A DNA stretch of 64,000 nt, from assembly GCA_964345045.1 (NCBI GenBank), contig CAYFPM010000002.1, forward strand, positions 140,330 to 204,329, read 5' to 3'. This DNA comes from an uncultured Gammaproteobacteria bacterium. Its GTDB lineage: Bacteria; Patescibacteriota; Patescibacteriia; Magasanikbacterales; UBA922. Shown in pieces: positions 2,149-63,242 of the stretch; the first letter of the stretch is position 1, and each line of letters opens with the position of its first letter. Below the pieces are notes generated by a model. It ran no database searches. It had not been told where the DNA came from and saw only the letters and a list, made by a program, of their open reading frames with translations. Both the position numbers and the translations under genes were made by a program.

Positions 2149-3531
2149 CTAATTGTCTATCTTTTGCATTTGTTTCACTTCTTTTATCTTTTTCACTGCC
2201 GGTTTTTTCTCATTAATTTTTTTGGCCTTTTCTCTAGCATCTTCCAATTTCTTTTTGTCTGCTTCGCGTTTGTTCTCTACTTTCTTTTTTGCTCTTTCCA
2301 AAGCCTTTTTGGCAGCTTCTTTTTTATCCTCATCTTCTATATTTTCTAGTTTGTTTTTAGCTCTTTCTATAGTTTTTTGTTTTACTTCAGCCTTATTTTC
2401 TATAACTTTTTTCTTAAGCTCTGTTTTGTTTTCTATATCTAGACCTCGTTCTTTTATTTCTGATTTTACTTCTTTTTTGATCTTATTTTTTATAACTCTT
2501 TCTTTTACATTTTCCTTACGGTTTTCTTTTCTTTCTTCATTTACCTTTTTCAATTTGTCGGTGGTAGCGTTCAAAATTCTCAAACGCTTTTTGGCCTCTT
2601 CATCTCCTTCGGCAGCTCTTTCTTGCAAATTTTCTTTTTTGGCACGGTATTCTACTCTAATTTCGTGAACTCTTTCTTTTTTCTTATCTCTCAATTCTTG
2701 TAATTCTTCTCTGGCACTTTCGTCTCCTTCTTTGGCTGCTTGCAGTAGAGTATTTCTTTTTTCTCTATACTCTTTTACAGCTTCGGCGTGTTTTTCTACT
2801 CTTGTCTTTACATCTTGCAAATGTTCTCTAACTCTTTCTGGAACATTTTCATTATCAATGGCATTTAGCAACCGACGAGCTCTTTCTTTTTGATTATCAC
2901 GAAGTTGTTCAAATCTTTCTCTTTTTTCTTCTGGCAAACGGTCTTCTACTTTGTCCAAAATTCTCTCACGTCTTACCTGGTGGGTAGCAATATTTTTTAT
3001 CAATCTCTCAACTCTTTCACCACCATTTTCCAAAAAATCATCTTTCCTTTCTTCTACTCTGGCCATAAATTGGTTGGCTCTCTCTATCATGGCTTCGGCT
3101 CGCTCTTGCATAGCCGGGTTATCAATTTTTTCAGAAAGTTTTTCTGCAATTTTAATTCTTTCTTCGGCAAATTTTATTTGTTTTTCTGCTTTTTTGACTG
3201 GATCAAAAGTTACAGCCAAACTAACTCTTTCTCTTACATTTCTCCAAAATAATCCAAACCCAGATGGAGCTGTTTCTACTTCTTCTATTTCCAAACCTTC
3301 TAATTCTTCTTCACCAATTTCTTCTTCCAATTCCTCTTCTATCTCTGCTGCCGCTGCATCATCTTCTGCTATTGCAACAACTTCTACTTCTGCAGTTGTT
3401 TCTACTTCGAGAGAAGTCTCGTCTGTTTCTGTTTGTGCCAAAGCTGGAGCAACAAACAACAATGAGATAATAAATGCTACTACCATAAGTAGCCAAAAAT
3501 TCTTCAAACTCTGCGTCATATTTTTATACAT
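2149..3531 (-). CDS. secreted K/E-rich coiled-coil protein (signal peptide plus long charged low-complexity region)
   Basis: N-terminus MTQSLKNFWLLMVVAFIISLLFVAPALA, followed by E/K/R-rich heptad-like sequence over about 400 aa. Confidence 0.55.
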   Translation of the reverse strand: MYKNMTQSLKNFWLLMVVAFIISLLFVAPALAQTETDETSLEVETTAEVEVVAIAEDDAAAAEIEEELEEEIGEEELEGLEIEEVETAPSGFGLFWRNVRERVSLAVTFDPVKKAEKQIKFAEERIKIAEKLSEKIDNPAMQERAEAMIERANQFMARVEERKDDFLENGGERVERLIKNIATHQVRRERILDKVEDRLPEEKRERFEQLRDNQKERARRLLNAIDNENVPERVREHLQDVKTRVEKHAEAVKEYREKRNTLLQAAKEGDESAREELQELRDKKKERVHEIRVEYRAKKENLQERAAEGDEEAKKRLRILNATTDKLKKVNEERKENRKENVKERVIKNKIKKEVKSEIKERGLDIENKTELKKKVIENKAEVKQKTIERAKNKLENIEDEDKKEAAKKALERAKKKVENKREADKKKLEDAREKAKKINEKKPAVKKIKEVKQMQKIDN

Positions 3532-50071: not shown

Positions 50072-50100
50072 ACAAAAACTCTCATTGCTGAGAGTTTTTT
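50072..50100. terminator. bidirectional terminator (ychF 3' end)
   Basis: Hairpin aaactctc-attgc-tgagagttt followed by a T-run. Confidence 0.6.
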
Positions 50101-50104
50101 ATTT

Positions 50105-50122
50105 CCTCCCCTATCAGGGGGG
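50105..50122. repeat. palindrome CCTCCCCTATCAGGGGGG (copy 1 of 3)
   Basis: The same element occurs at 61222 and, in inverted orientation, at 61647. Confidence 0.55.
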
Positions 50123-50129
50123 TAGTTAT

Positions 50130-51200
50130 CTAGGCTATGTGAAAATAGCAAACATCCCCATCTTTCACAAAATAATCCTTCCCTACCAATTGCATCTTCC
50201 CTTTCTCCTTTACACCATTCCAACCACCACAATCTACAAAGTCTTCCCACTCTGCCACATCGGCCTTTACAAACCCTTTTATAAAATCGGTATGAATCAC
50301 TCCGGCTGCTTCTGGCGCTGGAGTTTCTTTTTTTACTGTCCAAGCTCTGGTCTCTTCTACTCCACTGGTAAAATAAGTTACCAGATCTAGCAACTTGTAA
50401 CCAGCCAAAATAATTTTGTCGAGTCCAGATTGATCCATACCCAAGTCAGCCATATACTCTTTGGCCTCTTCTTTACTTAGGTCTGCCAACTCGGCTTCGA
50501 GTCTGGCACAAACAAAAACAACATCTTCACCAAAATCATTTAAAATTTTTGATTTATCATTTATGATTTCGTCAGTATTGACGATATACATCATTGGTTT
50601 CATGCTAAGCAGATGCAGCTCCTTCATAATTTCCATTTCGTCTTCGGTGTATTCCAATTCTCTGGCTGCTTTGCCGTTTTGCAAATGTTCACTTAGCTTT
50701 TCCAAAAGTTCAATTTCTAATTTCACTTCCTTGGCTTGGATTCCTTTGGCTTTTTTCTTGGTATTTTCCAAACGTTTGCTTACTGTTTGCCAATCTGCCA
50801 AAACAAGTTCCAAGTTAATTACATCGGCATCGTCTTTGGGATCAACTTTGTTGTGTACATGGGTAATGTTGCCATCTTCAAAAGCGCGCACTACCTGAGC
50901 AATGGCATCTACCTCACGAATATGGGTTAAAAATTTGTTTCCTAGTCCTTCTCCTTCGGAAGCTCCTTTTACCAGCCCGGCAATATCTACAAACTCTATG
51001 GTAGTAGGAATTGTTTTTTGTGAATTGGAAACTTCGGTCAAAGCTTGTAAGCGATGGTCTGGTACCTCAACAATTCCAACGTTTGGTTCGATAGTGCAGA
51101 ATGGATAATTTTGGGCATCGGCTTGCTTGCTACTAGTTAAAGCATTGAAAAGTGTAGACTTGCCTACATTTGGAAGACCGACAATACCTAAAGACAACAT
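50130..51200 (-). CDS. ychF: ribosome-binding ATPase YchF
   Basis: G1 motif GIVGLPNVGKSTLFNALT. TGS domain at the C-terminus. Confidence 0.85.
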   Translation of the reverse strand: MLSLGIVGLPNVGKSTLFNALTSSKQADAQNYPFCTIEPNVGIVEVPDHRLQALTEVSNSQKTIPTTIEFVDIAGLVKGASEGEGLGNKFLTHIREVDAIAQVVRAFEDGNITHVHNKVDPKDDADVINLELVLADWQTVSKRLENTKKKAKGIQAKEVKLEIELLEKLSEHLQNGKAARELEYTEDEMEIMKELHLLSMKPMMYIVNTDEIINDKSKILNDFGEDVVFVCARLEAELADLSKEEAKEYMADLGMDQSGLDKIILAGYKLLDLVTYFTSGVEETRAWTVKKETPAPEAAGVIHTDFIKGFVKADVAEWEDFVDCGGWNGVKEKGKMQLVGKDYFVKDGDVCYFHIA

Positions 51201-51224
51201 GGTATAAAAATTAGGTTAAAATAA

Positions 51225-51305
51225 AAATGTACGAAATGCGAAAGTTACGAAAATACGAATTAAGTTATTAAATTTTCGTAATTTCGTACAATTCGTAATT
51301 CGTAC
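51225..51305. repeat. palindromic array of TTCGTAMW octamers upstream of ychF
   Basis: ttttcgtaatttcgtacaattcgtaattcgtaca and, on the other side, gtacgaaatgcgaaagttacgaaaatacgaatt. Confidence 0.45.
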
Positions 51306-51312
51306 ATAGCTG

Positions 51313-51386
51313 TGGACCTGAGGGGATTTGAACCCCTGACTTCTACCATGCCATGGTAGCACTCTAGCCAGCTGAGTTACAGGCCC
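51313..51386 (-). tRNA. tRNA-Ala (anticodon GGC)
   Basis: Minus-strand GGGCCTG-TA-ACTC..GAGT-CTACC-ATGGCAT-GGTAG-AAGTC-AGGGG-TTCAAAT-CCCCT-CAGGTCC-A with the G3:U70 alanine identity pair. Confidence 0.75.
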
Positions 51387-51443
51387 TTAGAATGTTAAAC
51401 ATTAAACCACAAACCTTTTTAAAAATCAAGTCTCAGCAAAAAC

Positions 51444-51470
51444 TCTTGACATTTTGTAAGTTGAGTTATA
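51444..51470 (+). promoter_or_regulatory. sigma70-like promoter TTGACA-15-TATAAA
   Basis: TTGACA at 51444-51449 and TATAAA at 51465-51470. Confidence 0.45.
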
Positions 51471-51485
51471 AAGTTAAGCCACAAT

Positions 51486-51640
51486 CAAAAAATATCAAGA
51501 GTGAGGATAGCGACTTGGCGCCACAACCCTCTACCAACCGAGCTTAACTACGGTGGTTCCAACCCCAATGGGAAAGATAGGCCTTTTAAACAAAAGGAAA
51601 ATAAGGAGTTTCTTATCTTATCCGGGTAAGAAATTTTTGT
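51486..51640 (+). ncRNA. candidate SAM-I (S-box) riboswitch with an intrinsic terminator expression platform
   Basis: P1 UAUC/GAUA. J1/2 AAGAG. Segments resembling the S-box consensus (AUCAAGAG, ACCAACC, GGUGnUUCC, GAAAGAUA). A terminator hairpin tttctta-N11-taagaaa plus a U-run lies at 51607-51640, about 75 nt before the ATG. Confidence 0.45.
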
Positions 51641-51716
51641 TTTATATGAGCAATATAAAATAGAAACTTCTTACTCACAAGAGATAAGAAGAAAATAAAG
51701 AACAACGGAGTTCACC

Positions 51717-52649
51717 ATGAAAGACGGAAAAGACACTTATTTCTTCAGCGATTGCTTTCAACACGGAAGCTCCCAATTTGATCCGAATGCCGCCTCCCGA
51801 ACGATGGCTCGCTTTCGCAAGATTAGTAGACAAATCAGGCCAGAAGTATCCCCACCTTTCCTCGACAGACAAGGAGCTTGGCGAGGGACTGACCTAGGTT
51901 TTCTGATGGCCGAGTTGGCTCATCAACACACAGGGCTGGTCATTGGTGGAAATGCTGCCAAGCGAATCCCTGGGAAAAAAAACGGAACTTCTTTTTCTTT
52001 GGCAACGGTAGGTGGCAACCTAATCCTTTCTACTGTGGGCAAAAACACCTACCCAGTAATGGCTCGTCTTCTTGGGCTAGACTCAATCGAAGTTGCCCTC
52101 CTCGATATCGGAAACGCTGCCCAGAAGATGAATGTCCAAAACAAAGAAAGGATGACAACCACTCAATACCGTTCGCTCTGGTTTCAAACAGCGGCTTTGG
52201 CTCAGCTGGCTCACCTCGAAACACTCCCCACTCACCCAAATTCGATCTTCGGCGGGGAAGTAAAAACAATCAAGCCTGACAGCGGAATGCGAATTGTCTA
52301 TATCGATAGCTTCGGAAACTTGAAGCTCTCTGGTAGAAGAAAAGACTTGCCCAAGGGAGAAAGAATCAAGGTCTCTTTCCCAGAAAAAGCACATCGAAAC
52401 CTCTCGCCACTTGGAGCGAACAACACAGCACATATCACAGGTGGAAGGGAAAACGAATTTCAAGTTTCAGTCGGATCAAGTATCCCTACCGAAGCAGGCG
52501 GTCTACTAGAACTCCAAATCCTCGGTGGAACTAGGATAGGAGTCGATACGGCTGCAGACAAAGTTCTAGGGCACTTCCTGGGCGTCCCGGACGTTCGCTG
52601 CCATCACGACCTCATAGGTATCAAAGTGAGGCTCAGCAAAGCCTCCTAA
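51717..52649 (+). CDS. DUF62-like protein (SAM hydroxide adenosyltransferase / SalL-FlA family), GC-rich gene
   Basis: N-terminus FFSDCFQHGSS. Central YRSLWFQTAALAQLA. C-terminal domain IVYIDSFGNLKLS resembles the D.FGN motif of DUF62 enzymes. Foreign-like codon usage. Confidence 0.4.
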   Translation: MKDGKDTYFFSDCFQHGSSQFDPNAASRTMARFRKISRQIRPEVSPPFLDRQGAWRGTDLGFLMAELAHQHTGLVIGGNAAKRIPGKKNGTSFSLATVGGNLILSTVGKNTYPVMARLLGLDSIEVALLDIGNAAQKMNVQNKERMTTTQYRSLWFQTAALAQLAHLETLPTHPNSIFGGEVKTIKPDSGMRIVYIDSFGNLKLSGRRKDLPKGERIKVSFPEKAHRNLSPLGANNTAHITGGRENEFQVSVGSSIPTEAGGLLELQILGGTRIGVDTAADKVLGHFLGVPDVRCHHDLIGIKVRLSKAS

Positions 52650-52673
52650 AACCTTCTATTAGTTTTGGCACAA

Positions 52674-52737
52674 ACGCAGGAAGCAGATTGAGTCTAGTCG
52701 ACAAACCTACGTCGATTGAGATTCTCGCTTCCTGCGT
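52674..52737. repeat. long imperfect hairpin acgcaggaagc...gcttcctgcgt after the DUF62-like gene
   Basis: Arms of about 28 nt with a few mismatches. No T-run follows. Confidence 0.4.
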
Positions 52738-52930
52738 TCGATCCATCTCTAAAAAACAATTATAACAACCTTACAAAAAAAGGTTTTTTATTTGTTTTTT
52801 ATAATTATATTGTACGACATTATTTATTATTTAATTTTAGTCATTTTTTACAAAAAATTAACAAGGGTAACTCTTCCTCCAAAACAATTTTACAAACCAC
52901 TCCTCTCAAACCACACCCTCAGACAAAAAA

Positions 52931-52946
52931 TGTTCCACGTGGAACA
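52931..52946. promoter_or_regulatory. perfect 16-bp palindrome TGTTCCACGTGGAACA (site 1)
   Basis: Exact self-complementary 16-mer with a CACGTG core. It shares flanking sequence ...tttgatt..gattt with site 3. Confidence 0.5.
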
Positions 52947-53089
52947 TTTTGATTCTAGATTTTTGGATTATGATTTCAAAAATCAAACATATCGCACCTC
53001 ACTTCAATTAAACCAAAATTTTACCTTATCTCGGTTTTGTTGGAACAAAATCAAATCAATAATTCCAAGCTCTTACATCTGCAATCATT

Positions 53090-53105
53090 TGTTCCACGTG
53101 GAACA
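53090..53105. promoter_or_regulatory. perfect 16-bp palindrome TGTTCCACGTGGAACA (site 2)
   Basis: Exact copy lying 60 nt downstream of the Ham1-like gene. Confidence 0.5.
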
Positions 53106-53164
53106 AAACAACAGCCTAAAAGCTGTTATTATTTTGTATACAATAGTGTGTACAATTATACTTT

Positions 53165-53773
53165 TTATTTTAAATATTCTTCTATAGATTTATCAAACAC
53201 TTCTTGTAAGTCGCTATATGCCAATAGATTTTCCTCTCTTTTCATTTCTGCATGAAACTTACCCAGTTTCTGGTTGTAGCAAAGTGCTGACAAAGGTAAC
53301 CCTGAAATATAATGGGGTTGATTGTCTACAAGTTTGAAAGCAAATTCTCTATTGTAGGCAAATTCTATTATTTTTCCTTCTGCAGTACAGATAGCAAAGG
53401 CAAAATGCCATTTGCCTCCTGTTAAGTTTTTTTCAACAATTTGTTTGTGCCAATAATCATATATTTCTTTATCTGTGGCTCTGGTCTTACCATCAAAAAT
53501 TCTTCTAGCATGCACCCCTGGTTGCTCAGCTTCTGAGATTTCATCTACAAACAGAGCAATGTCTACAGCCAAAACATCTGTTTTAAATTCACGAGAGTAT
53601 ACACTAGCCTTATATTTGGCGTTTTTTTCGGCAGTTTCAAAAGGCTCCTCAACTTCAAAATCAACAGAAAAATCATTCAAAGACTTAATCTCCAAATTCT
53701 CATATTTGACAAGGTAATGAGAAAAAAATTCCAATTTTCCAGAATTAGTTGTAGCCAAAGTTAATTCTTTCAT
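53165..53773 (-). CDS. Ham1/RdgB-family non-canonical purine NTP pyrophosphatase-like protein
   Basis: N-terminus LATTNSGKLEFF resembles the ITPase motif LATGNxGKxxEF. About 200 aa. Confidence 0.5.
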   Translation of the reverse strand: MKELTLATTNSGKLEFFSHYLVKYENLEIKSLNDFSVDFEVEEPFETAEKNAKYKASVYSREFKTDVLAVDIALFVDEISEAEQPGVHARRIFDGKTRATDKEIYDYWHKQIVEKNLTGGKWHFAFAICTAEGKIIEFAYNREFAFKLVDNQPHYISGLPLSALCYNQKLGKFHAEMKREENLLAYSDLQEVFDKSIEEYLK

Positions 53774-53816
53774 TCAATAAATACTACTGATTACCCAAAG
53801 TAAGAAGACGATCAAT

Positions 53817-53832
53817 TGTTCCACGTGGAACA
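53817..53832. promoter_or_regulatory. perfect 16-bp palindrome TGTTCCACGTGGAACA (site 3, 44 nt upstream of the Ham1-like start)
   Basis: Exact copy in an operator position for the gene at 53165-53773. Confidence 0.5.
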
Positions 53833-53920
53833 ATTTGATTACGGATTTATGAATCTTGATTGCTAAATTTTGGTTGATTAAAGAATATTCCAAAATCAAA
53901 AATCATAATTCAGAAATTCA

Positions 53921-54053
53921 TTGTGCCCCCACCAGCCCGCCAGAGGCGGATCACCCGAAGGGTGAGAATCCCAGCCTCCGGCTGATGACCCGTAGGGTCA
54001 GAACCTAGATTTAGGCGTTAGGAGTGCCTCGTTCCCAGCCTGCCACTGCCTGT
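53921..54053. other. GC-rich structured element of unknown nature next to tRNA-Arg(CCT)
   Basis: A series of short GC hairpins (ccgcc-aga-ggcgg, caccc-gaa-gggtg, gaccc-gta-gggtc, ccta-gatt-tagg). Its end, ggtgggggcaca, repeats the tRNA 3' acceptor sequence gacgggggcaca. Confidence 0.25.
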
Positions 54054-54125
54054 GCCCCCGTCACGAATCGAACGTGAACCCAAAACTTAGGAGGTTTTTG
54101 TTCTATCCATTAAACTACAGGGGCA
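54054..54125 (-). tRNA. tRNA-Arg (anticodon CCT)
   Basis: Minus-strand GCCCCTG-TA-GTTT-AATGGATA-GAAC-A-AAAAC-CTCCTAA-GTTTT-GGGT-TCACG-TTCGATT-CGTGA-CGGGGGC-A. Confidence 0.7.
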
Positions 54126-54170
54126 TTGGCACTGGCGGGCAGGTATCCATTGAACTACAGGGCTTAACTT
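54126..54170 (-). other. partial duplicate of the tRNA-Arg 5' region (GCCCTGTAGTTCAATGGATA)
   Basis: Lies immediately 5' of the tRNA and matches its first 21 nt except for 2 nt. It does not continue into a cloverleaf. Confidence 0.3.
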
Positions 54171-54322
54171 AGGTAAAAATAAGTGTCGTACAATTATTCT
54201 AATGATCTATTCTTACAAACCAGAGTAGGCTATTCAAAAAAATAATTTCTGTTATACTACTTTTACTATATAAACGAACAAACCTAGTCTAGCTAGGTTT
54301 GTGGAAAAAATCAACCTTATAT

Positions 54323-55447
54323 ATGGAAAATATTCTACTTACAATTGTTTCACTCGGTCTTGCTGCCGCTGTAGGCGTAATCTTTTTTATGTTCAAGAAG
54401 TTATCCGATTTGCAGCAAGGCAAAAATTCTGGAGACGAAGAAAAAAACATGTTTGTCATGCTGCAAAACCAAATGCAAGATCTAGCCAAAACTTTTGACA
54501 ACAAAATGGGGGAGACGCACAAAACCATGCACGCCACTCAGCAAGATATTAACAAAACTTTGCAAGAACAATTTGGTCACAATACCCGATTGATCCAAGG
54601 TGTTACGAGCCAAAGCACCAAAATGATTGCAGACATCACCGAGAAACTTACTAGTCTTGATAAAACTAATCAACAAGTGATTGGTTTTTCTGAACAGCTA
54701 AATAACTTGGAAAAAGTTTTGAAAAGCCAAAAACAAAGAGGGAATCTGGGCGAAGCTGGTTTGCAACTAGTGCTAGAAAACATTTTGCCTCCAACTGCTT
54801 TTTCTATTCAGCATAATTTTAAAGATGGTGACACGGTGGACGCAGCTATCTTTACCAAAGATGGGATTATCCCAGTTGATGCCAAATTCTCTTTGGAAAA
54901 TTATCAAAAACTAATTGACGAAACCGATGAAAACCGCAAAGCCACGCTAGAGCGAGAATTTAAAAATGATTTGAAAAAACGCATTGACGAAACTAGTAAA
55001 TACATAAAACCAAAAGAGGGGACACTCGATTTTGCCTTTATGTTTATTCCGAGCGAAGCTATTTATTATGATCTCTTGGTAAACGAAGTTGGCGCTGTCA
55101 AAGTTAACACCAGAGATTTGATTGATTATGCTTTTAATGAAAAGAAAGTGATTATAGTTTCACCAACTACTTTTGCTGCTTACCTCCAAACAGTTTTGCA
55201 AGGTTTGCGCGCACTCAAAATTGAAGAAGGAGCCAAGAGTATACGAAAAAATGTGGAGATGCTGGGTAAACATGTCAAAGCTTACGAAGAATATATGAAA
55301 AAGCTTGGCAGCAGCATGACCACTACTGTAAATCATTACAACACAGCTTACAAAGAACTAGGCAAGATTGATAAAGACGTGATGAAAATAACTGATGGTG
55401 AAAAAATGATTGAGGTGGAGCAGATTGAGCGGCCAAAAGGGGAGTAG
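54323..55447 (+). CDS. rmuC: DNA recombination protein RmuC
   Basis: N-terminal TM helix plus coiled-coil. C-terminal RmuC nuclease-like domain ([34 protein letters not shown]). Confidence 0.75.
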
Positions 55448-55448
55448 T

Positions 55449-55616
55449 ATGCCCAATACAAAAAACACCAAACCCCGTATATACACCATGAGCTTTGCCA
55501 GTGTCTACCCTCACTATATTACCAAAGCAGAGAAAAAGGGACGCACGAAAAAAGAAGTAGATGAAATTATTCGTTGGTTAACAGGTTTGAGACTTTCTTT
55601 GCCGAAGCCAAGCTAA
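55449..55616 (+). CDS. DUF2200-like N-terminal fragment (55 aa), possibly truncated
   Basis: [46 protein letters not shown] then diverges and stops. Full-length family members are about twice as long. Confidence 0.35.
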
Positions 55617-55657
55617 ATCCTCTGCGGACTGCTATAAACACCTAGTATCTCACCCAG

Positions 55658-55686
55658 CTTGACAAAAAACCCTATTTTCGGTATAA
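55658..55686 (+). promoter_or_regulatory. consensus sigma70 promoter TTGACA-17-TATAAT for rpsT
   Basis: TTGACA at 55658-55663 and TATAAT at 55681-55686. Confidence 0.6.
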
Positions 55687-55760
55687 TGGTCACGCTCTCA
55701 AAAATCGTAAATTTCACTAAGTTTACGACTTACAACTAATCTTTTAGAATAATTCTAATT

Positions 55761-56021
55761 ATGCCAATCAAAAACAGCGCCAAAAAGGCTTTTCGCCAAA
55801 GTCAAAAGCGTACGGCAGAAAACAAAATCGTCAAAGACGCCTACAAACAAGCTGTAAAAGCAGTACTAAAAGCAGTTGAATCTGGTAAAGAGGTAAACGA
55901 AGTAGTTCGTTTGGCTCAAAAGAAACTAGACAAAGCTGCCAAAAAAGGTGTCCTAAAGCCAAACACAGCTTCTCGTAAGTTGTCTAGACTAATGAAAAAA
56001 GTGCACGCTAGTGCCAAATAA
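55761..56021 (+). CDS. rpsT: 30S ribosomal protein S20
   Basis: MPIKNSAKKAFRQSQKRTAENK... with a Lys/Ala-rich helical sequence. Confidence 0.85.
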   Translation: MPIKNSAKKAFRQSQKRTAENKIVKDAYKQAVKAVLKAVESGKEVNEVVRLAQKKLDKAAKKGVLKPNTASRKLSRLMKKVHASAK

Positions 56022-56053
56022 AAAAAACTCCGGCAAATGTCGGAGTTTTTTTA
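56022..56053 (+). terminator. intrinsic terminator after rpsT
   Basis: Hairpin aactccg-gcaaatgt-cggagtt followed by a T7 run. Confidence 0.75.
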
Positions 56054-56300
56054 TTTATCAAATACTACTAACCACTACAAACTAATATTTATCTGTAAAA
56101 TCTAAAAATGAAACTGGGGTCTGGGGTAGCAGCTAAGCGCCCATCTAGAAAAGATAGACTTTACCGATGCCAATGTGAGCGATTCTGCACCCCAGCAGTT
56201 TCCTGCCTACCGGCAGGCAGGTTGGTTACTTTTTGCTGTCAAAAAGTAACACTTAGAAAGCTAACCTTTTATTTATTAAACAAAGCTATTAATCAAAATC

Positions 56301-57716
56301 TTACCTTATATAACTAAGTGGATTTTGCCTACGACCATTTAGTCGTACCTCGTAGTGAATATGAGGACCGGTAGATCTACCGGTAGACCCCATAGAAGCA
56401 ATATTTTGACCTTGGGTCACAACATCTCCGACAGATACATACAATCTAGAAGCATGAGCATACAGGGTCTGCACACCATTGCCATGATCAATAATAATAT
56501 AACAACCATAACCACCGTTCCAACCACATTGTGATTTGATTACCGTACCACCTCTAGAAGCATAAAGCGGCGAACCAAGCGGCCCGGCAATATCCAAACC
56601 AGTATGACGCCAACCATAATACTGAGTAATTCTACGTACATTGGTTGGCCACAAATAACCAGACCCAGCCGGAGCAGTTACCGATGGAGCCGGAGCAGAG
56701 ATCTTGGAAAGAGAAGTACTTCGGCTAGGAGTAGGCGCTACATAAACCGGTCTAGGTTTTTCTCCACCAGGCACCAAAAGCTCTTCACCAACCACAATGT
56801 CCGATCCACCTTCTTGAAGTTTGTTATATTTTACAATATCTTCAGACTCCGCATCGTAGAGTCTGGCAATTTTTGAAACCGTTTCTCCTCTTTTTACAGT
56901 ATGCAAAAGTCCGTTGACCGGTAAAATTTTCAACTCGTCTCCCGGACGAATATAAGAGCGAGTAGACAAATTATTAGCCCACAAAATTGTGGTTACATTT
57001 ATGCCATACTCTTCGGCGATTCTACCTATCACATCACCTGGTTTTACCGTGTGAGTTATTACACTACTGCGATCCGAACTACTTGGTTTGGGCAATTCTG
57101 TTCCCGGCAAAATAGTCGGTTTCGAAACAGCACTACCACCAGCACTTACACTACCCAATTCTTGATCATTATTTACTATAAAAATAGCATCGGTGCCATT
57201 GTAATTTTCGGCCACAACCGAACCTTCGCGCCAACCACGACTATCTCTTTGAGCCAGTTGAGTCAAATCAACTTCTACTTCTTCTATTTCAAAATCCAAA
57301 TCTCCCGGCCCAACCAAATTGTAAAGCAAGGTCCCTCTACCAGCTATGGTTTGAGTTTCTTTGGTGTACAGCTTACTATGAGGAATCATTATTACTACAG
57401 CCACTACAAACAAAGCTGCTTGCAGAGTAGCTCTTTGTCCCAAAAAACCGGTTATCCCATCGTCTACCGATATGTTGGCCTTTCGCAATTGGTTTTTTAG
57501 CCAAAAAGAAAACTTATAAACTCGAAAACCAAGATGTTTGCGGTAAAAAGACATAAAGATACGCCCCAGACTAACTGATTCATAAAAAAACCAAACTACA
57601 GCTCTTTTGGCATAGATAAGCGAGCGCAAAAAGGTAAGAAAAATTTTGTACCAAATATTTTTCATTTTGTAGGTTAAATACTGTGCTAGAGTAGCATCAA
57701 AGCTACCTTTTTTCAA
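56301..57716 (-). CDS. LysM-domain M23 family metallopeptidase
   Basis: TM anchor. Two LysM repeats (HTVKPGDVIGRIAEEYGI, HTVKRGETVSKIARLYD). M23 motifs HTGLDIAGPLGSPLYA and GSTGRSTGPHIHYEV. Start codon ambiguous. Confidence 0.75.
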   Translation of the reverse strand: MKKGSFDATLAQYLTYKMKNIWYKIFLTFLRSLIYAKRAVVWFFYESVSLGRIFMSFYRKHLGFRVYKFSFWLKNQLRKANISVDDGITGFLGQRATLQAALFVVAVVIMIPHSKLYTKETQTIAGRGTLLYNLVGPGDLDFEIEEVEVDLTQLAQRDSRGWREGSVVAENYNGTDAIFIVNNDQELGSVSAGGSAVSKPTILPGTELPKPSSSDRSSVITHTVKPGDVIGRIAEEYGINVTTILWANNLSTRSYIRPGDELKILPVNGLLHTVKRGETVSKIARLYDAESEDIVKYNKLQEGGSDIVVGEELLVPGGEKPRPVYVAPTPSRSTSLSKISAPAPSVTAPAGSGYLWPTNVRRITQYYGWRHTGLDIAGPLGSPLYASRGGTVIKSQCGWNGGYGCYIIIDHGNGVQTLYAHASRLYVSVGDVVTQGQNIASMGSTGRSTGPHIHYEVRLNGRRQNPLSYIR

Positions 57717-57870
57717 GGGTTAATAATGTTTTTTTTGCTTATTTTAGGTCTTTTTTGAATTAATTAATAAACCACACCTTATATAACAAAGATTGACAAA
57801 TAGACAGCTTTCCGCTATGCTAGCCAAATCTTTTATAACTTCTAGCTCTAATAGGCTATTAAAATCCAAA

Positions 57871-59163
57871 TATATGGACTACAAAACCAAAAAACTAGAT
57901 AATTCCGAATTGGAACTAACTATCACAGTTACTCCCGAAGATTACCAAAACAAACTAGAGGCCGCTGCCAAAAAACTATCCGAAAGAGTAGCCATAAAAG
58001 GCTTTCGCAAAGGCAATGTTCCTTTTGAAATTATGAAAAAAGAAGTTGGTGAAATGCCAATTTTGCAAGAAGCCTTGGAAGTAGTTGTTCAAGAAAGCTT
58101 TTTTGATGTAGTAAAAAAAGAAGAATTGGAAACTATTGGTATGCCAAAAATAGAAGTAGAAAAATTGGCTCCGGGCAACGATATTGTTTACAAAGCAATA
58201 GTTGGTTTGATCCCAAATGTAAAACTAGCTGATCCAAGCAAGATCAAAGTAGAAAAAAAAGTAAAAGAAGTAGACGAAAAAAGATTAACCGAAACTTTGG
58301 ACGCTTTGCGTGGGATGCACGCCAAGGAAGTAGTAAAAGAAGGTACTGCCGAAGGCACAGACAAACTAGTAATCGACATGGATATGCTACTAGACAAAGT
58401 TCCTGTTGACGGCGGTCAAGCCAAAGATTATCAAGTTTACCTTAGCGAAGATCATTATGTACCTGGATTTAACGAACATGTAAAAGGTTTGAAAAAAGGC
58501 GATGAAAAAGAATTTTCACTAGACTTTCCACCAGAACATTACCAAAAAATGTTGGCTGGCAAAAAAGTAGATTTTAAAGTAAAAGTAAAAGAAGTTTACG
58601 AAAGACAGCTTCCAGAATTGTCCGATGACATGGCCAAAAAACTTGGTCAAGATAGTGTAGAAAAATTGAAAGAGTTGATAAGAAACAACATGAAAGAAGA
58701 AGCCGAACAAAAGGCTGAACAATCTATGGAAGTAGAAATCCTAGACAAGATGATTGAAAAAACTACTTTTGATCCAATTCCAAACGTAATTGTAGACGCC
58801 GAAAAACAAAAAATGTTTTACGAATTGAAAAGAGATTTGGAAAGAAACGGAGTAAGTATAGAAGACTATCTAAGAGATATTAAGAAAAAAGAAGACGAAC
58901 TGTTTAACGACTTTCAAGTCCAAGCCGAAAAACGCGCCAAAGCTGCATTACTATCTCGCCAAATTGCCAAAGAGCAAAAGATTGAAATAAGCAAAGAAGA
59001 AATTGACGAAGAAATTAAGATGATGGAAGGTGTTTACAAAGATAATCCAGAAGTACTAGAAAACCTAAAACGTGCCGAAGTAAGAGAATCTATTGCCACC
59101 ACCCTGCAAAACAAAAAAGTAATGACTTGGTTAAAAGAGCAAATGATGGGTGAAAAGAAATAA
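57871..59163 (+). CDS. tig: trigger factor
   Basis: N-terminal ribosome-binding motif GFRKGNVP. PPIase-like middle domain. C-terminal helical arm. Start at MDYKTKK. Confidence 0.8.
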   Translation, partial: YMDYKTKKLDNSELELTITVTPEDYQNKLEAAAKKLSERVAIKGFRKGNVPFEIMKKEVGEMPILQEALEVVVQESFFDVVKKEELETIGMPKIEVEKLAPGNDIVYKAIVGLIPNVKLADPSKIKVEKKVKEVDEKRLTETLDALRGMHAKEVVKEGTAEGTDKLVIDMDMLLDKVPVDGGQAKDYQVYLSEDHYVPGFNEHVKGLKKGDEKEFSLDFPPEHYQKMLAGKKVDFKVKVKEVYERQLPELSDDMAKKLGQDSVEKLKELIRNNMKEEAEQKAEQSMEVEILDKMIEKTTFDPIPNVIVDAEKQKMFYELKRDLERNGVSIEDYLRDIKKKEDELFNDFQVQAEKRAKAALLSRQIAKEQKIEISKEEIDEEIKMMEGVYKDNPEVLENLKRAEVRESIATTLQNKKVMTWLKEQMMGEKK

Positions 59164-59182
59164 GAATTAAAGAAAAAAATAA

Positions 59183-59212
59183 AACCGTTCAAATTTATGA
59201 ACGGTTTTATTT
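59183..59212 (+). terminator. intrinsic terminator after tig
   Basis: Hairpin aaaccgttc-aaatttatg-aacggttt followed by TATTTT. Confidence 0.65.
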
Positions 59213-59299
59213 TACCGGCGATTCCCCTAAAATATTTTTTAGGAAAATTGTGAGTGGGTTGGGTTTGGAAAAGACAAGGCCAACAAAAAAATGATTTCA

Positions 59300-59773
59300 T
59301 CATTCTTGCTTCATTGACCCAGAAAAAAACAAGGCGGCACAAGCAAAAATAGTAAGCACGGTCGAGAAAATACAAACCTTTGCCAACGAAGGATGGCTCA
59401 GTGTTCCCTCCCACAAATATTCCAGATTTCCATCTTCGCACATAGGAGGATACCATCGAAGGAAAACTGGCATAGAAAAAGAAAGTAGATGAGAAAAGCA
59501 GCACAAATTCAATACAGATAAAATCTGCACGAACTTCCAGTGCTTTTGGTTATTTAGCAGCCGAATCTTTCGAGAAAAGCAAAACCACAAAGAAAACAAT
59601 ATCACAGCTCCAGTACCAACAAGAGAAGTCAGAGCCACAATAAAGTATCCATGCTGTTTAATTAGGGTATCTACGAAGAGTAGATCAGCCCAAAAAACAG
59701 CACAGAGTGGAAAGATCATTAGAAACAGGTAAAGAGAGAGGGGCAGTTCTTTTTGTTTACCGATATTTTCCAT
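59300..59773 (-). CDS. hypothetical integral membrane protein
   Basis: 4-5 hydrophobic helices. Start chosen at MENIGKQKEL. Confidence 0.35.
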   Translation of the reverse strand: MENIGKQKELPLSLYLFLMIFPLCAVFWADLLFVDTLIKQHGYFIVALTSLVGTGAVILFSLWFCFSRKIRLLNNQKHWKFVQILSVLNLCCFSHLLSFSMPVFLRWYPPMCEDGNLEYLWEGTLSHPSLAKVCIFSTVLTIFACAALFFSGSMKQE

Positions 59774-59904
59774 CAGAAAATCCTTTTTGTTGACGGTTTG
59801 CATAGACACAAACCCACTGAAAAGATCTGTAGATTTTTTACCACAGAGAGCTCCAATCGTCAATAATCCTCCCAAATAACAAAAAGGTGCTATAATAAAA
59901 ACCT

Positions 59905-60687
59905 ATGAAAAAATCAAAAGAATTGGAGGTAGCTATCAAACTGGCGAGACAAGCTAACAACATCTTAAAGAAAAAATTTAGTAGATTGGGTGTAGAAAAT
60001 ATAAAATTCAAAGAGCACAAAAGCATCGTTACTAGTGTAGATATTGAAATAAACAAACTACTGATATCCAAACTACACGAGGCCTTTCCAAATGATCTAA
60101 TTGTTAGCGAAGAAGATCACGATATCCCGGGCAAAAATGGCAAAGCCTGGTACATAGACCCTATAGACGGTACGGCCAACTTTGCTCGCGGCTCCAAACT
60201 TTTTGGGGTTAGTATTGGTATGACCAAGAATGAAGAAGTTGAACTGGGCGTAATCGGTCTGCCTATGCAAAAAGAAATTTACTTTTCTCAAAAAGGTTTG
60301 GGAGTTTTTGAAAAAAACAAAAAAATTATTCCCCAACCACAAAACGGCGCTCGACCGCTATACTTGGTAGGCGCAGCTTCGCCCAGAGCTAGGCAAAAAT
60401 TAAAAGATTTTATAAACAAAAGTGACATGACCACCTACAACGCCCAAATGTATGGCTGCGCCGTAGAGCATTTGACGGCAGTAGCTACCGGCAGAGCCTC
60501 TGCCAGTATAATGATGGATATCCACCCTTGGGATGTAGTGGCTGGTGTGGCTATGGTAAGAGAAGCTGGTGGGATAGTGACAAACTTATGGGGTGAAACT
60601 TGGACCACACAAGACAAAACTATCGTAGCCGCAAACAAAGAAAATTGGGACAAAATAATAGCCGTCACCAAAACAATTACTGATTAG
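59905..60687 (+). CDS. suhB: inositol monophosphatase family protein
   Basis: Motifs WYIDPIDGTANFARG, SEED and WDVVAG. Confidence 0.75.
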   Translation: MKKSKELEVAIKLARQANNILKKKFSRLGVENIKFKEHKSIVTSVDIEINKLLISKLHEAFPNDLIVSEEDHDIPGKNGKAWYIDPIDGTANFARGSKLFGVSIGMTKNEEVELGVIGLPMQKEIYFSQKGLGVFEKNKKIIPQPQNGARPLYLVGAASPRARQKLKDFINKSDMTTYNAQMYGCAVEHLTAVATGRASASIMMDIHPWDVVAGVAMVREAGGIVTNLWGETWTTQDKTIVAANKENWDKIIAVTKTITD

Positions 60688-60688
60688 T

Positions 60689-60910
60689 ATGGTTAAAAAA
60701 ATTTCTGTAAAAGTTGTTCCTAAAGCTTCTAAAAATGAAATAATAAAAATAACTGAAAATAATTATAAAGTAAGGTTGACGGCTGCCCCGATAGATGGTG
60801 AAGCTAATAAAAAATTGATTGAGCTTCTTAGTAAATTTTTTAAAGTTTCCAAAACTTCAATCCAAATAAAAAAAGGCTTAAAAAGCAAGAATAAAATTTT
60901 AGAAATTTAA
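60689..60910 (+). CDS. DUF167 (YggU) family protein
   Basis: ISVKVVPKASKNEI...RLTAAPIDGEANKKLIELLSK. Confidence 0.7.
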   Translation: MVKKISVKVVPKASKNEIIKITENNYKVRLTAAPIDGEANKKLIELLSKFFKVSKTSIQIKKGLKSKNKILEI

Positions 60911-60911
60911 T

Positions 60912-61178
60912 TTATTCCGGATAATCCTCCCCACCTTTACTCCAAGGATTACAACGCAAAATCCTCCAAACAGTTTTTGGCACTCCCAATAATAAACCTT
61001 TTTTCTTTATCACTTCGTAACCATACTGACTACACGTAGGATAAAATTTGCAGTACCCATGCGGGTTATTTTTTTTCGCCCAAAAAGAATGATCTGGTGA
61101 CAATATCTTTTGATACAAAAAAATTAACCAGAGAATTGGATAACGAGGAAGGTGGATTATTTTTTTAAATACAGACAT
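60912..61178 (-). CDS. yidD: membrane protein insertion efficiency factor YidD
   Basis: Motif CKFYPTCSQYGYEVIKKKG. Confidence 0.7.
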   Translation of the reverse strand: MSVFKKIIHLPRYPILWLIFLYQKILSPDHSFWAKKNNPHGYCKFYPTCSQYGYEVIKKKGLLLGVPKTVWRILRCNPWSKGGEDYPE

Positions 61179-61221
61179 AACGTACATAGCACTCTCCCTC
61201 TCCTTTTAGAACTTTTTAGTT

Positions 61222-61240
61222 CCTCCCCTATCAGGGGAGG
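61222..61240. repeat. palindrome CCTCCCCTATCAGGGGAGG (copy 2), flanking the DUF559 gene
   Basis: Hairpin of 7 bp with a 5-nt loop. An inverted-orientation copy lies on the other side of the gene at 61647. Confidence 0.55.
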
Positions 61241-61255
61241 TTAGGAGGGGTCGAG

Positions 61256-61630
61256 TTATAATTTTAACTCCTGGATATTATTGTATATATCTTGCAAAAC
61301 AGCCTTCAGCTCATACATAACTTGTTCATTCCTATAACGTAACACCTTGTATCCTTTTCTCTCAAGATACTTATCACGAATAATATCTTTCTTTCTATAT
61401 TCTTCCTCACCATGAATCCACCCATCAAGCTCTATTACTAAACGAACTTCATGAGAATAAAAATCTACAATATAGTAGTCAATGTTATACTGACGACGAA
61501 ATTTAACTCCGAATTGCTTTGATCGTAAATACTTCCACAATTGCATTTCTGCTTCTGTTGGTTCATATCTAAGCTTCTTTCTTTTTTGTTTTAATGAAGA
61601 TTTGTTTTGGTACCTCCCAATTTTTTCCAT
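61256..61630 (-). CDS. DUF559/Vsr-like endonuclease domain protein
   Basis: YIVDFYSHEVRLVIELDGWIHGEEEYRKKDIIRDKYLERKGYKVLRY is a PD-(D/E)xK Vsr-like signature. Confidence 0.6.
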   Translation of the reverse strand: MEKIGRYQNKSSLKQKRKKLRYEPTEAEMQLWKYLRSKQFGVKFRRQYNIDYYIVDFYSHEVRLVIELDGWIHGEEEYRKKDIIRDKYLERKGYKVLRYRNEQVMYELKAVLQDIYNNIQELKL

Positions 61631-61646
61631 ATTAGACCCCCTCTAA

Positions 61647-61665
61647 CTCCCCCTGATAGGGGGAG
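61647..61665. repeat. palindrome CTCCCCCTGATAGGGGGAG (copy 3, inverted orientation)
   Basis: Reverse-complement variant of the copy at 61222. Together they bracket the DUF559 gene. Confidence 0.55.
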
Positions 61666-61714
61666 AATTAATTCCTTCCATCTCTCTTTAGGAGAGAGAA
61701 CTTTCTAAGAAAAT

Positions 61715-62092
61715 TTATAATAAAACTCTCGCCCTTTTCAAAACATTCACCACACTCTTTTCGATATCTTTATACTCTGCTTCCAAAATCTGTGGCTTGG
61801 CCATAACAGAAACCATAAAACCATTTTTTATCTTGCCGTCTTTTATAAGCAATCTTACCACTTCTCTCATTTGTCTTTTGATCCGATTTCTCTTTACAGC
61901 ACTTTTATGAATTTTTTTGCTAACCACAAATCCAATCAACGTTTTGTCTTTGGAATAATTCCGACGAGGATGTTTGTCTGGATCAACTTGCCATACTTTG
62001 GCTGTTACCACTTTTTCACCCACAAAAAAACCTTCTTTGAAGAGGATATCAAAATCTTTCATGTGTTTTAGGCGGTATTCTTTGGGAAGCAT
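61715..62092 (-). CDS. rnpA: ribonuclease P protein component
   Basis: Motif FVVSKKIHKSAVKRNRIKRQMRE. Immediately downstream of rpmH. Confidence 0.75.
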   Translation of the reverse strand: MLPKEYRLKHMKDFDILFKEGFFVGEKVVTAKVWQVDPDKHPRRNYSKDKTLIGFVVSKKIHKSAVKRNRIKRQMREVVRLLIKDGKIKNGFMVSVMAKPQILEAEYKDIEKSVVNVLKRARVLL

Positions 62093-62194
62093 ACTCAAAA
62101 ATAGACAAGATACAGGAATCAATATACATCAGTATAAAATAAATTTGTATCTTATTCCATATATTTTGTATTTTAAAAACCCCTTAAGGGGTTT

Positions 62195-62371
62195 TTAACG
62201 TGTTTTACGCATTCTTTTGCCACTGCGCTCATCGCTTACAGTTAGCTTTTTGCGGCCTTTTTGGCGACGGCGTTTTAGCACATCGCGACCATCTTTGGAT
62301 TTCATACGGCTACGAAAACCATGAGTCTTGGCGCGTTTGCGTTTTTTTGGTTGATAAGTTCTTTTTGGCAT
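62195..62371 (-). CDS. rpmH: 50S ribosomal protein L34 (58 aa, C-terminally extended)
   Basis: [45 protein letters not shown]... . It is not in the ORF track because it is under 60 aa. A hairpin aaaacccctt/aaggggtttt lies between rpmH and rnpA. Confidence 0.8.
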
Positions 62372-62549: not shown

Positions 62550-63242
62550 TTATGAGACCTGGCACTCGTCGTAGAGGCCATGCCACCAGCTGCCCATGGC
62601 AGATAGGACGGCTTGGGCTCCGCAGACAAAGTCGGCTTGGCACACTCCGTGGCTTTGCAAAAGAGCTTGCTTCAACCCTTCCTGATGCCCGGGCTCCCAG
62701 ACGTTGATGTGCTTATCCAAGAATTTTCGCAGGCCATTAGCCAGTGGTTTGTTATGGAAATCCTCAGAAAGCCTCTCCAAGAGGACCTTTACGACCAACA
62801 GCTCGGGACGAGCCGTAGCCTCCAGAGCATAGGCTGCCCCCAAGGAAAGTGACGAATTAGAACCGTTAATCGCATCTTCGACACTACCAAGAAAGCTACT
62901 TGTAGCCTTCGAGGAAATGGTATGGCGAACGGACAACCCCAAGCCTACCTGGAGTGTCCCTTCCAGCATCTCGTAGTGGGTAATACCCACACTGTCCGAG
63001 CCGAGTTCTTCGCCGATATTGCGGCTGAGCTCTAGCTCTACAGTCTTCAAACCACACCGACGCGCTGCATCCCTAGATCTCGTCAGAAACCGGACAATCT
63101 CCTTGGGAAAAAGAGTGTATTGAGCAACAACATACTCCAGGATCGCACGGTTGGTGTGGCGCGTGGTGAAGGGGTTCCCATCGACCTTTAGCTCAGCAGT
63201 GCTTGCCACGAGTGCGTCGATGGTCTGGATTGAATTTTTCAT
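62550..63242 (-). CDS. hypothetical protein (230 aa), GC-rich, possibly a heme-oxygenase-like or iron-containing redox enzyme fold
   Basis: Higher GC than its neighbours. Helical sequence with a NIGEELG....H.EM segment reminiscent of ExxH metal sites. Weak assignment. Confidence 0.3.
   Translation of the reverse strand: MKNSIQTIDALVASTAELKVDGNPFTTRHTNRAILEYVVAQYTLFPKEIVRFLTRSRDAARRCGLKTVELELSRNIGEELGSDSVGITHYEMLEGTLQVGLGLSVRHTISSKATSSFLGSVEDAINGSNSSLSLGAAYALEATARPELLVVKVLLERLSEDFHNKPLANGLRKFLDKHINVWEPGHQEGLKQALLQSHGVCQADFVCGAQAVLSAMGSWWHGLYDECQVS

Follow-up and report, generated by a model that had tools for sequence, protein, structure and literature searches.

Contig CAYFPM010000002.1 (assembly GCA_964345045.1, Candidatus Magasanikbacteria, a member of the Candidate Phyla Radiation, CPR) carries a small gene between rnpA and yidD that is enclosed by two inverted copies of a three-block repeat. 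We define "the window" as the 64,000-nucleotide stretch of this contig that was analyzed (positions 140,330 to 204,329), and coordinates given without a locus number are positions in it. The gene encodes a 124-amino-acid DUF559 protein, a predicted Vsr-like PD-(D/E)xK nuclease, and the repeats belong to a class with a predicted intrastrand triplex, known successively as BoxC, PIT (potential intrastrand triplex) and TM. We lean toward reading the unit as a compact, selfish, homing-type cassette, in which a DUF559 gene (YcjD family, Vsr/EDxHD-like) lies between two inverted class II triplex repeats. Related genes in many phyla often have such repeats beside them, and in relatives of the host genome the insertion site is empty, decayed or held by another cassette.

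Structure of the cassette

An earlier note on this DNA had described hairpins in opposite orientation on either side of the gene and had called the arrangement cassette-like. The description holds: the only DUF559 gene in the window (61256-61630, minus strand; Pfam PF04480, E = 1.7e-33) is bracketed by two 37-nt arms. The hairpins that had been noted are the cores of this longer inverted repeat and make up only two thirds of the full unit; the arms (61216-61252 and 61635-61671) are 81% complementary and are separated by 382 nt. The 19-mer CCTCCCCTATCAGGGGAGG occurs exactly only at 61222-61240 (plus strand), and a copy with two mismatches lies at 50105-50123 (plus strand). Practically no match is expected by chance, as none was found across 100 shuffles. 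Its 13-nt core, CCCCTATCAGGGG, is present three times, at 50108 and 61225 on the plus strand and at 61650 on the minus strand. The copy at 61647-61665, CTCCCCCTGATAGGGGGAG, has four differences from the reverse complement of the 61222 copy, all of them compensatory within the stem, which stays perfect. Apart from these three copies, the 64 kb hold no homopyrimidine/homopurine hairpin.

Each unit is built from a pyrimidine block (Y), its Watson-Crick complement (R), and a third block (M) that mirrors R instead of complementing it. The 5' terminal repeat (61635-61671, minus strand) reads TTAATTC-CTCCCCCT-ATC-AGGGGGAG-TTA-GAGGGGGT-C on the coding strand, with Y at 61665-61658, the loop at 61657-61655, R at 61654-61647, the spacer at 61646-61644 and M at 61643-61636. 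The 3' terminal repeat (61216-61252, plus strand) reads TTAGTTC-CCTCCCCT-ATC-AGGGGAGG-TTA-GGAGGGGT-C on the plus strand, with Y at 61222-61229, the loop at 61230-61232, R at 61233-61240, the spacer at 61241-61243 and M at 61244-61251. Both CCTCCCCT-ATC-AGGGGAGG and CTCCCCCT-ATC-AGGGGGAG form perfect 8-bp stems with a short loop, and the M blocks (GGAGGGGT in the 3' repeat, GAGGGGGT in the 5' repeat) each come after TTA. The stems are of different types, CCTCCCC in the 3' repeat and CTCCCCC in the 5' repeat, and the single A/T position moves in step through all three blocks between the two copies. Folded as single-stranded DNA, the two flanking hairpins reach -8.6 and -10.2 kcal/mol (z = -2.8 and -3.4). 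The M block of the 5' repeat ends 6 nt ahead of the ATG, with TAAT between, and resembles a Shine-Dalgarno sequence. Rfam returned no match to the repeats at the gathering threshold, and only chance-level matches at E up to 10.

The mirror block and the triplex code

The behavior of the third block was measured on 141 hairpins near DUF559 genes that were selected with this block unconstrained. In 74 hairpins the mirror of R is the better fit to the 3' flank, and in 19 it is R in direct orientation; the mirror block averages 2.50 mismatches, compared with 3.42 ± 0.06 when R is swapped between elements. At the aligned positions of 78 related elements G is matched by G in 477 of 484 cases, while A is matched by A 113 times, by T 90 times, by C six times and by G once. 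As read from the alignments, this pattern is that of the antiparallel purine-motif (reverse-Hoogsteen) triplex code, G.GC, A.AT and T.AT, and the unit is a predicted class II purine-motif intrastrand triplex repeat of the BoxC/PIT/TM kind. The G-runs may also be taken for G-quadruplexes, but a hairpin or triplex accounts better for the mirror code and for the covariation of the pyrimidine arm.

Such repeats were reportedly first described as BoxC by Bergler in 1992, and as PIT elements by Hoyne and Maher in 2000. BoxC, PIT and TM (TMECO in E. coli) are successive names for one repeat class (Holder et al. 2015, PMC4666352), which has been described in E. coli, cyanobacteria and others and whose function is unknown. 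Our repeat matches this class, and the motif class itself is therefore not new. Circular dichroism and nuclear magnetic resonance show that an isolated TMECO strand forms a stable class II purine-motif intrastrand triplex (PMC4666352).

The triplex code bears on the main rival explanation, an unlikely one, which is that the repeats are expression devices acting in RNA. The 5' and 3' copies would pair in the transcript and hide the Shine-Dalgarno run, or would form an RNase III site that releases or stabilizes the small mRNA, as in the intervening sequences of rRNA; such a role would require no mobility of the DNA. Indeed, in an RNA fold of 61205-61685 (minus strand; -130.6 kcal/mol, z = -5.25) the two repeats pair over about 26 bp and enclose the open reading frame (ORF), and the distance of the M run from the ATG and the co-orientation of DUF559 genes with their upstream neighbors (see below) agree with a role in expression. 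However, the third block obeys an antiparallel purine-motif code, triplexes of this type do not form in RNA (work cited in PMC4666352), and Watson-Crick pairing alone would put no constraint on a mirror block. PIT elements had neither promoter nor terminator activity in earlier assays (PMC4666352). Moreover, most copies among the matches listed are gene-less doublets or solo repeats at variable distances from genes, and repeat orientation is reversed in some lineages.

The nuclease

Residues E67, H73, E75 and D82 are invariant among 42 homologs, and D69 is nearly so. The protein is 38% identical to E. coli YcjD and matches PDB entry 3HRL, a Neisseria DUF559 protein of unknown function, at E = 4e-15. 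An AlphaFold (AF2) model built from the 42 homologs has a mean predicted local distance difference test score of 85.9, and Foldseek ranks 3HRL first against it, followed by the catalytic domain of I-Bth0305I (3R3P; E = 2.7e-4, probability 1.0) and then by Vsr. By this modeling, the closest functionally characterized structure appears to be that of the homing endonuclease I-Bth0305I, and the conserved residues and the predicted fold fit an active nicking or cutting enzyme. Pfam places no transposase domain in the cassette gene, and no HUH, DDE or serine/tyrosine recombinase. Proteins 60-70% identical to it are encoded at unrelated loci in other Magasanikbacteria, where the neighbors are a methyltransferase gene, tuf (downstream of the DUF559 gene), or Wzz or Wzy genes. 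Carriage by phages was considered and rejected on the ground that 2.9 million viral contigs contain only three distant DUF559 relatives.

Insertion between rnpA and yidD

On the minus strand the gene order is rpmH (62195-62371), rnpA (61715-62122; RNase P protein, Pfam PF00825), the DUF559 gene and yidD (60912-61187; Pfam PF01809), and rnpA is co-oriented with the cassette. In cassette-free relatives yidD follows directly after rnpA. The two genes are 28 nt (L082/L083), 1 nt (L084/L085) and about 24 nt (L222) apart in relatives whose RnpA is 65-69% identical, whereas the interval is 527 nt in the window; the cassette is therefore an insertion relative to these genomes, placed within the rpmH-rnpA-yidD operon and co-directional with its neighbors. 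L081, a strain-level relative, adds nothing to this comparison, its sequence being 100% identical to that of the window. The earlier note had proposed a comparison of empty with occupied sites, and both are at hand: the site is empty in L082-L085 and L222, and occupied in the window and in L224/L225.

The occupant in L224/L225, where RnpA is 69% identical to that of the window, is a different cassette at the same site. Its 5' repeat, CTCTCTCCT-TTT-AGGAGAGAG-ACA-GAGAGAGGT, and its 3' repeat, the inverted ACCTCTCCCC-GA-CCCTCTCCT-AAA-AGGAGAGGG, are triplex repeats of a (TC)n type; its gene encodes a 121-amino-acid DUF559 protein just 40% identical to ours. In L223 a cassette of the L224 type has decayed, and its gene carries a frameshift and three stop codons. 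Two remnants of the (TC)n type also lie in the window, both outside its own repeats. The first, at 61672-61707 (minus strand; coding strand AAAGTTCTCTCTCCTAAAGAGAGATGGAAGGAAT), is a degenerate older triplex repeat that aligns with the intact 5' repeat of L224/L225. The second, at 61190-61212 (minus strand; coding strand GTTCTAAAAGGAGAGGGAGAG), is the purine arm of an older 3' repeat and aligns with the 3' repeats of L224 and L223; it includes a Shine-Dalgarno-like AAGGAG just ahead of the yidD start. The site is thus found empty, intact, decayed and with a different occupant. Because relatives hold different or decayed occupants, older remnants persist in the window and homologs 60-70% identical lie elsewhere, we conclude that this site was invaded more than once or that a resident cassette was replaced.

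A target-site duplication was considered for direct repetition in the window and rejected. The 10/12-nt pair AGAAAGTTCT/AAAAAGTTCT and the direct repeat AAAGTTCT are better read as remnants of older repeats.

The empty junction of L222 (1221-1244) reads AATTAGTGTCCTCCCCTCGT and contains, directly before the yidD start codon, TCCTCCCCT, the pyrimidine arm of the window's 3' repeat. This may be a footprint or a chance match.

Association of the repeats with DUF559 genes

A sample drawn from the protein side consisted of 80 loci with relatives of the window protein, one genome per species, from Magasanikbacteria, Paceibacteria, Saccharibacteria, Nomurabacteria, Doudnabacteria, Bacteroidota, Ignavibacteria, cyanobacteria and others; about 200 other loci were compared overall. 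The remaining ORFs of at least 100 amino acids in the same 80 loci (n = 280) served as controls. The three-block motif lies within 150 nt of 61 of the 80 DUF559 genes (76%) and of 28 of the 280 other ORFs (10%). It is present on both sides of 30 DUF559 genes (38%) and of a single control ORF (0.4%), a difference of about 100-fold. The motif reaches 4.98 copies per kb in the 150 nt around DUF559 genes, compared with 0.148 per kb in the rest of the loci.

The arrangement is regular. The M block usually faces the gene, on both sides in 18 loci, upstream only in another 18 and downstream only in eight, and the upstream neighbor is co-oriented with the DUF559 gene in 64 of 70 loci. Some cassettes are tightly packed: in L086 the upstream gene ends with a stop codon that falls inside the repeat's outer TTAATTC, while only 9 nt separate the 3' repeat from the gene that follows. 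The spacing between repeat and start codon can be as small as 4-5 nt. In four relatives (L055, L060, L062 and L075) the blocks around the DUF559 gene are TMECO-like.

Two loci have additional features. A Magasanikbacteria cassette (L003/L090) is nested in 55-nt inverted repeats with TTTAGGT-like units (2866-2921 and 3418-3472). In L216/L217 the DUF559 gene P0115 (2001-2393 in L216; 52 contig blocks) lies within a Type I restriction-modification operon with the order hsdM, ORF6N, hsdS, DUF559, DUF433, hsdR, and a triplex repeat overlaps its 3' end.

Copies of the repeat without a gene

A motif-first scan of metagenome contigs for CTCCCCCT-N3-AGGGGGAG-N3-GAGGGGGTC yielded at least 128 instances at at least 120 loci; the counts that follow are among the matches listed. 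A DUF559 gene is directly downstream of four of the 128 instances and otherwise adjacent to seven, 39 instances are gene-less doublets with M inward, nine are undetermined and 69 fall in none of these groups. On inspection many of the 69 proved to be doublets of opposite polarity, and across the loci the gene-less doublets number 44 with M inward and 53 with M outward. Many M-inward doublets have gaps of about 32-34 nt, and the partner is often of the CCTCCCC or CCCCTCC type. Many pair CTCCCCC with CCTCCCC, the same two end types as the cassettes, and the gene-less doublets of Magasanikbacteria share their inner borders, GGGGTC and GACCCC, with cassettes. Nine of 19 inverted pairs spaced 200-600 nt apart enclose a DUF559 gene, with gaps of 375-435 nt. 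The other ten enclose no recurrent gene save one 91-amino-acid ORF, found twice with identical sequence, so that no cargo other than DUF559 clearly recurs within the inverted pairs.

The 91-amino-acid ORF (L121, 7644-8041; L133, 11629-12026) lies between inward-facing inverted triplex repeats with a gap of 338 nt. By eye its product looks FHA-like, and it could represent a second type of cargo.

The motif thus often occurs apart from DUF559 genes, which only 11 of the 128 listed copies adjoin. The earlier note had named such a distribution as grounds for refuting its reading, since the motif would then be a generic terminator. Numerically the distribution is as described, but it does not make the motif a terminator: no T-run follows it, and the PIT assays were negative. 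That the hairpins are ordinary intrinsic terminators or mRNA-stabilizing stem-loops, flanking the gene by chance, would account for short G+C-rich stems at gene ends, and we give it almost no credence. A terminator scan calls neither flanking hairpin, neither is followed by a T-run on either strand, and the reading as intrinsic terminators was rejected on these grounds together with the published assays (PMC4666352). In addition, ychF has its own canonical terminator beside a solo copy of the repeat, and a covarying mirror block is not a feature of terminators. The abundance of solo and doublet repeats relative to DUF559 genes is instead the pattern known from REP sequences with their single RAYT gene.

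It is improbable, in our estimation, that the association is indirect, although this explanation has support from E. coli. Triplex repeats would destabilize intergenic DNA, small horizontally acquired genes would land or survive there, and the nuclease would have no relation to the repeats. TM loci vary more among E. coli strains than control intergenic sites do (PMC4666352), and about 38% of E. coli genomes have an efflux operon in place of the ycjD region. Against it stand the status of DUF559 as the sole clearly recurrent gene between inverted pairs, the excess of flanking on both sides, the regular orientation and the spacing down to a few nucleotides from the start codon. The two end types are, moreover, kept between cassettes and many doublets.

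One solo copy lies in the window itself. The degenerate hairpin CCTCCCCTATCAGGGGGGT (50105-50123, plus strand) has the outer flank (TTATTTC, which resembles the flank of the 3' repeat) and the Y-loop portion typical of the 3' repeat, but the purine arm has degenerated and the mirror block is missing. As single-stranded DNA it folds weakly (-4.9 kcal/mol, z = -1.0). On one side of it is the stop codon of ychF, and on the other a bidirectional terminator of canonical form, distinct from the hairpin (50074-50099). The copy is probably what remains of an earlier repeat, a relic or footprint; it may conceivably have been left when the two hairpins of a cassette or doublet once present there recombined. 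A ribbon-helix-helix/ParE pair lies downstream, and a promoter-like site for the pair follows the copy. The earlier note had singled out this proximity to a toxin-antitoxin pair, but a functional link between the two finds no support.

E. coli ycjD

E. coli offers a comparison in which the repeats have long been known. Strain MG1655 has 23 TMECO copies, among them five inverted pairs, each composed of a type A repeat (TTA loop) and a type B repeat (CCG loop) (PMC4666352); there is one ycjD. In E. coli K-12 (NC_000913.3; L095), TMECO #9 (1,351,239-1,351,204) lies 168 nt downstream of ycjD (1,351,407-1,351,760), and a duplicated fragment of the ycjD 3' end lies between them. Of 5426 complete E. 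coli genomes, 3378 carry the gene and 2048 (about 38%) lack it. In the ycjD-negative genomes examined, including ST131 (L218), an eefRABC-type resistance-nodulation-division efflux operon replaces the sapF-fabI interval, upstream of fabI, and no repeat was found at the junctions of this operon. A clean pair of empty and occupied ycjD sites was considered and set aside, as the whole interval is replaced and there is no simple excision.

These absences bear on a further alternative, that DUF559 is a structure-specific repair nuclease which benefits its host by clearing hairpin or triplex blocks, and that co-selection rather than selfish spread brought it next to the repeats. The predicted fold is that of a Vsr-like repair nuclease, and PIT elements arrest DNA polymerase in vitro (PMC4666352). 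We give this alternative little credence nonetheless: ycjD is missing from so many E. coli genomes; the rnpA-yidD site shows pseudogenization (L223), replacement and empty states among relatives; and a repair enzyme acting in trans needs no bracketing by its own substrate.

Proposed mechanism and its significance

If the unit is a homing-type cassette, read-through of the host operon would supply the transcript of its gene, and the G-run of the 5' repeat would serve as the ribosome-binding site for translation. The protein would nick or cut DNA at the repeat, or guided by it, and the target might be a gene-less doublet, or else the hairpin or triplex that folds while the DNA is briefly single-stranded. 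With the repeats of about 30-37 nt as homology arms, repair would then copy the gene into other repeat sites (homing), or replace a resident cassette. The solo and doublet repeats would stand to the cassette as REP and REPIN sequences do to RAYT genes, as its footprints or non-autonomous relatives. The suggestion of a mobile or homing unit in the earlier note gains from the insertion, from the re-use of the site and from the predicted homing-endonuclease-like fold; mobility and nuclease activity themselves are points that we infer.

Several facts weigh against this mechanism. A hydrolytic PD-(D/E)xK nuclease alone cannot carry out strand transfer. No recent movement was seen: identical DUF559 proteins (P0010, P0020 and P0115) each occur in one genomic context, and DUF559 paralogs inside one metagenome-assembled genome are only 53-78% identical; on these two grounds recent transposition was rejected. 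No consistent target-site duplication abuts the repeats in the window, L086, L092, L006 or L009. The M blocks face outward in a minority of loci, 6 of the 80, and the polarity varies between lineages; most listed copies of the motif are gene-less; and the E. coli ycjD does not have repeats on both sides. In vivo footprinting in E. coli did not detect a stable triplex, and no mobility gene or function was found near TMECO sites (PMC4666352).

A wider proposal can be made only tentatively. It is that DUF559/YcjD nucleases are the cognate enzymes of BoxC/PIT repeats, and that the two together form a new class of mobile element ranging from CPR bacteria to E. coli, in which a Vsr-like nuclease reads a folded triplex or hairpin and spreads by repair-mediated copying, with the doublets as non-autonomous derivatives. 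To our knowledge, a systematic pairing of DUF559 genes, E. coli ycjD among them, with BoxC/PIT/TM repeats in different phyla has not been reported before. We found no paper linking DUF559 or ycjD with repeats or triplexes, and a literature search with the repeat strings themselves returned nothing relevant.

BoxC/PIT/TM repeats were recognized in E. coli as early as 1992. They mark unstable loci and are present in hundreds of genomes, yet no function, origin or partner protein has been assigned to them. DUF559 is among the commonest uncharacterized nuclease domains in bacteria. A specific link between repeat and DUF559 gives both of these long-standing unknowns one testable function. If the link is real, it would point to a system in nature where an intrastrand triplex of DNA may be read by a protein, and to a second relationship of the REP-RAYT type, assembled from unrelated parts. 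It would also explain small "hypothetical" genes wedged into conserved CPR operons.

Other features of the window

A second family of small palindromes, CCTGCCTrCCGGCAGGCAGG, is represented at 56202-56221 and also occurs in L090/L091, L025 and L062. In L090 a copy lies within a cassette's 5' repeat, in the spacer that separates its purine block from its mirror block (L090/L091, about 2950-2970), and similar copies lie just 3' of cassettes at a Saccharibacteria locus and a TA06 locus (the downstream end of L025; L062). The family may be another dispersed hairpin element of CPR genomes. Immediately upstream of rpmH lies a DUF3865/haem-oxygenase-like gene (62550-63242, minus strand) where L084 has dnaA; the local G+C content, 0.41, is slightly raised, and the gene may mark another insertion or rearrangement near the origin region. 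At 51487-51613 (plus strand) Rfam matches a SAM-I/IV riboswitch (45.6 bits; gathering threshold 41.1) upstream of a 310-amino-acid ORF (51717-52649) that has no Pfam match.

Comparison with known systems

The repeats of the window share with the BoxC/PIT/TM class a pyrimidine block, a loop of 3-6 nt, a complementary purine block, a loop of about 3 nt and a mirroring block of G, A and T. The TTA loop is that of TMECO type A. In both cases the repeats are intergenic, appear solo and as inverted pairs of two different types, and are found in many phyla. The TMECO consensus, CCCTCNCCC-N3-6-GGGNGAGGG-N3-GGGNGAGGG, is not matched by the 8-nt blocks of the window (CCTCCCCT and CTCCCCCT), so that the architecture is shared while the E. 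coli subfamily is not. For the published repeats neither an associated gene nor a mobility function was reported, whereas the pair described here encloses a gene, in a CPR host.

The REP/REPIN-RAYT systems (REPtrons) are alike in that inverted copies of a short palindromic repeat flank one gene of nuclease type, present in single copy, while the repeat is far commoner elsewhere in the genome, as solo copies and inverted doublets. The likeness is one of analogy only: RAYT is an HUH Y1 transposase of the IS200/IS605 TnpA family, DUF559 a Vsr-like PD-(D/E)xK hydrolase, and REPs are plain hairpins with a GTAG/CGTC tag, in contrast to the three-block triplex motifs of the window. The IS200/IS605 elements and the miniature inverted-repeat transposable elements (MITEs) also have structured ends or terminal inverted repeats and gene-less miniature derivatives. 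IS200/IS605 elements resemble the cassette in making no target duplication, but their hairpins are direct rather than inverted. The cassette has no transposase, and it also lacks the target-site duplications that are normal for MITEs and for DDE-type transposons.

Homing endonuclease genes with an EDxHD/Vsr-like domain (I-Bth0305I, 3R3P) share the predicted catalytic fold and the position of a small gene between conserved host genes. The empty, intact, decayed and replaced states of one locus across relatives fit the homing cycle. Classical homing genes have no inverted structured repeats at their borders and use a unique host target, whereas the candidate target here is a dispersed repeat.

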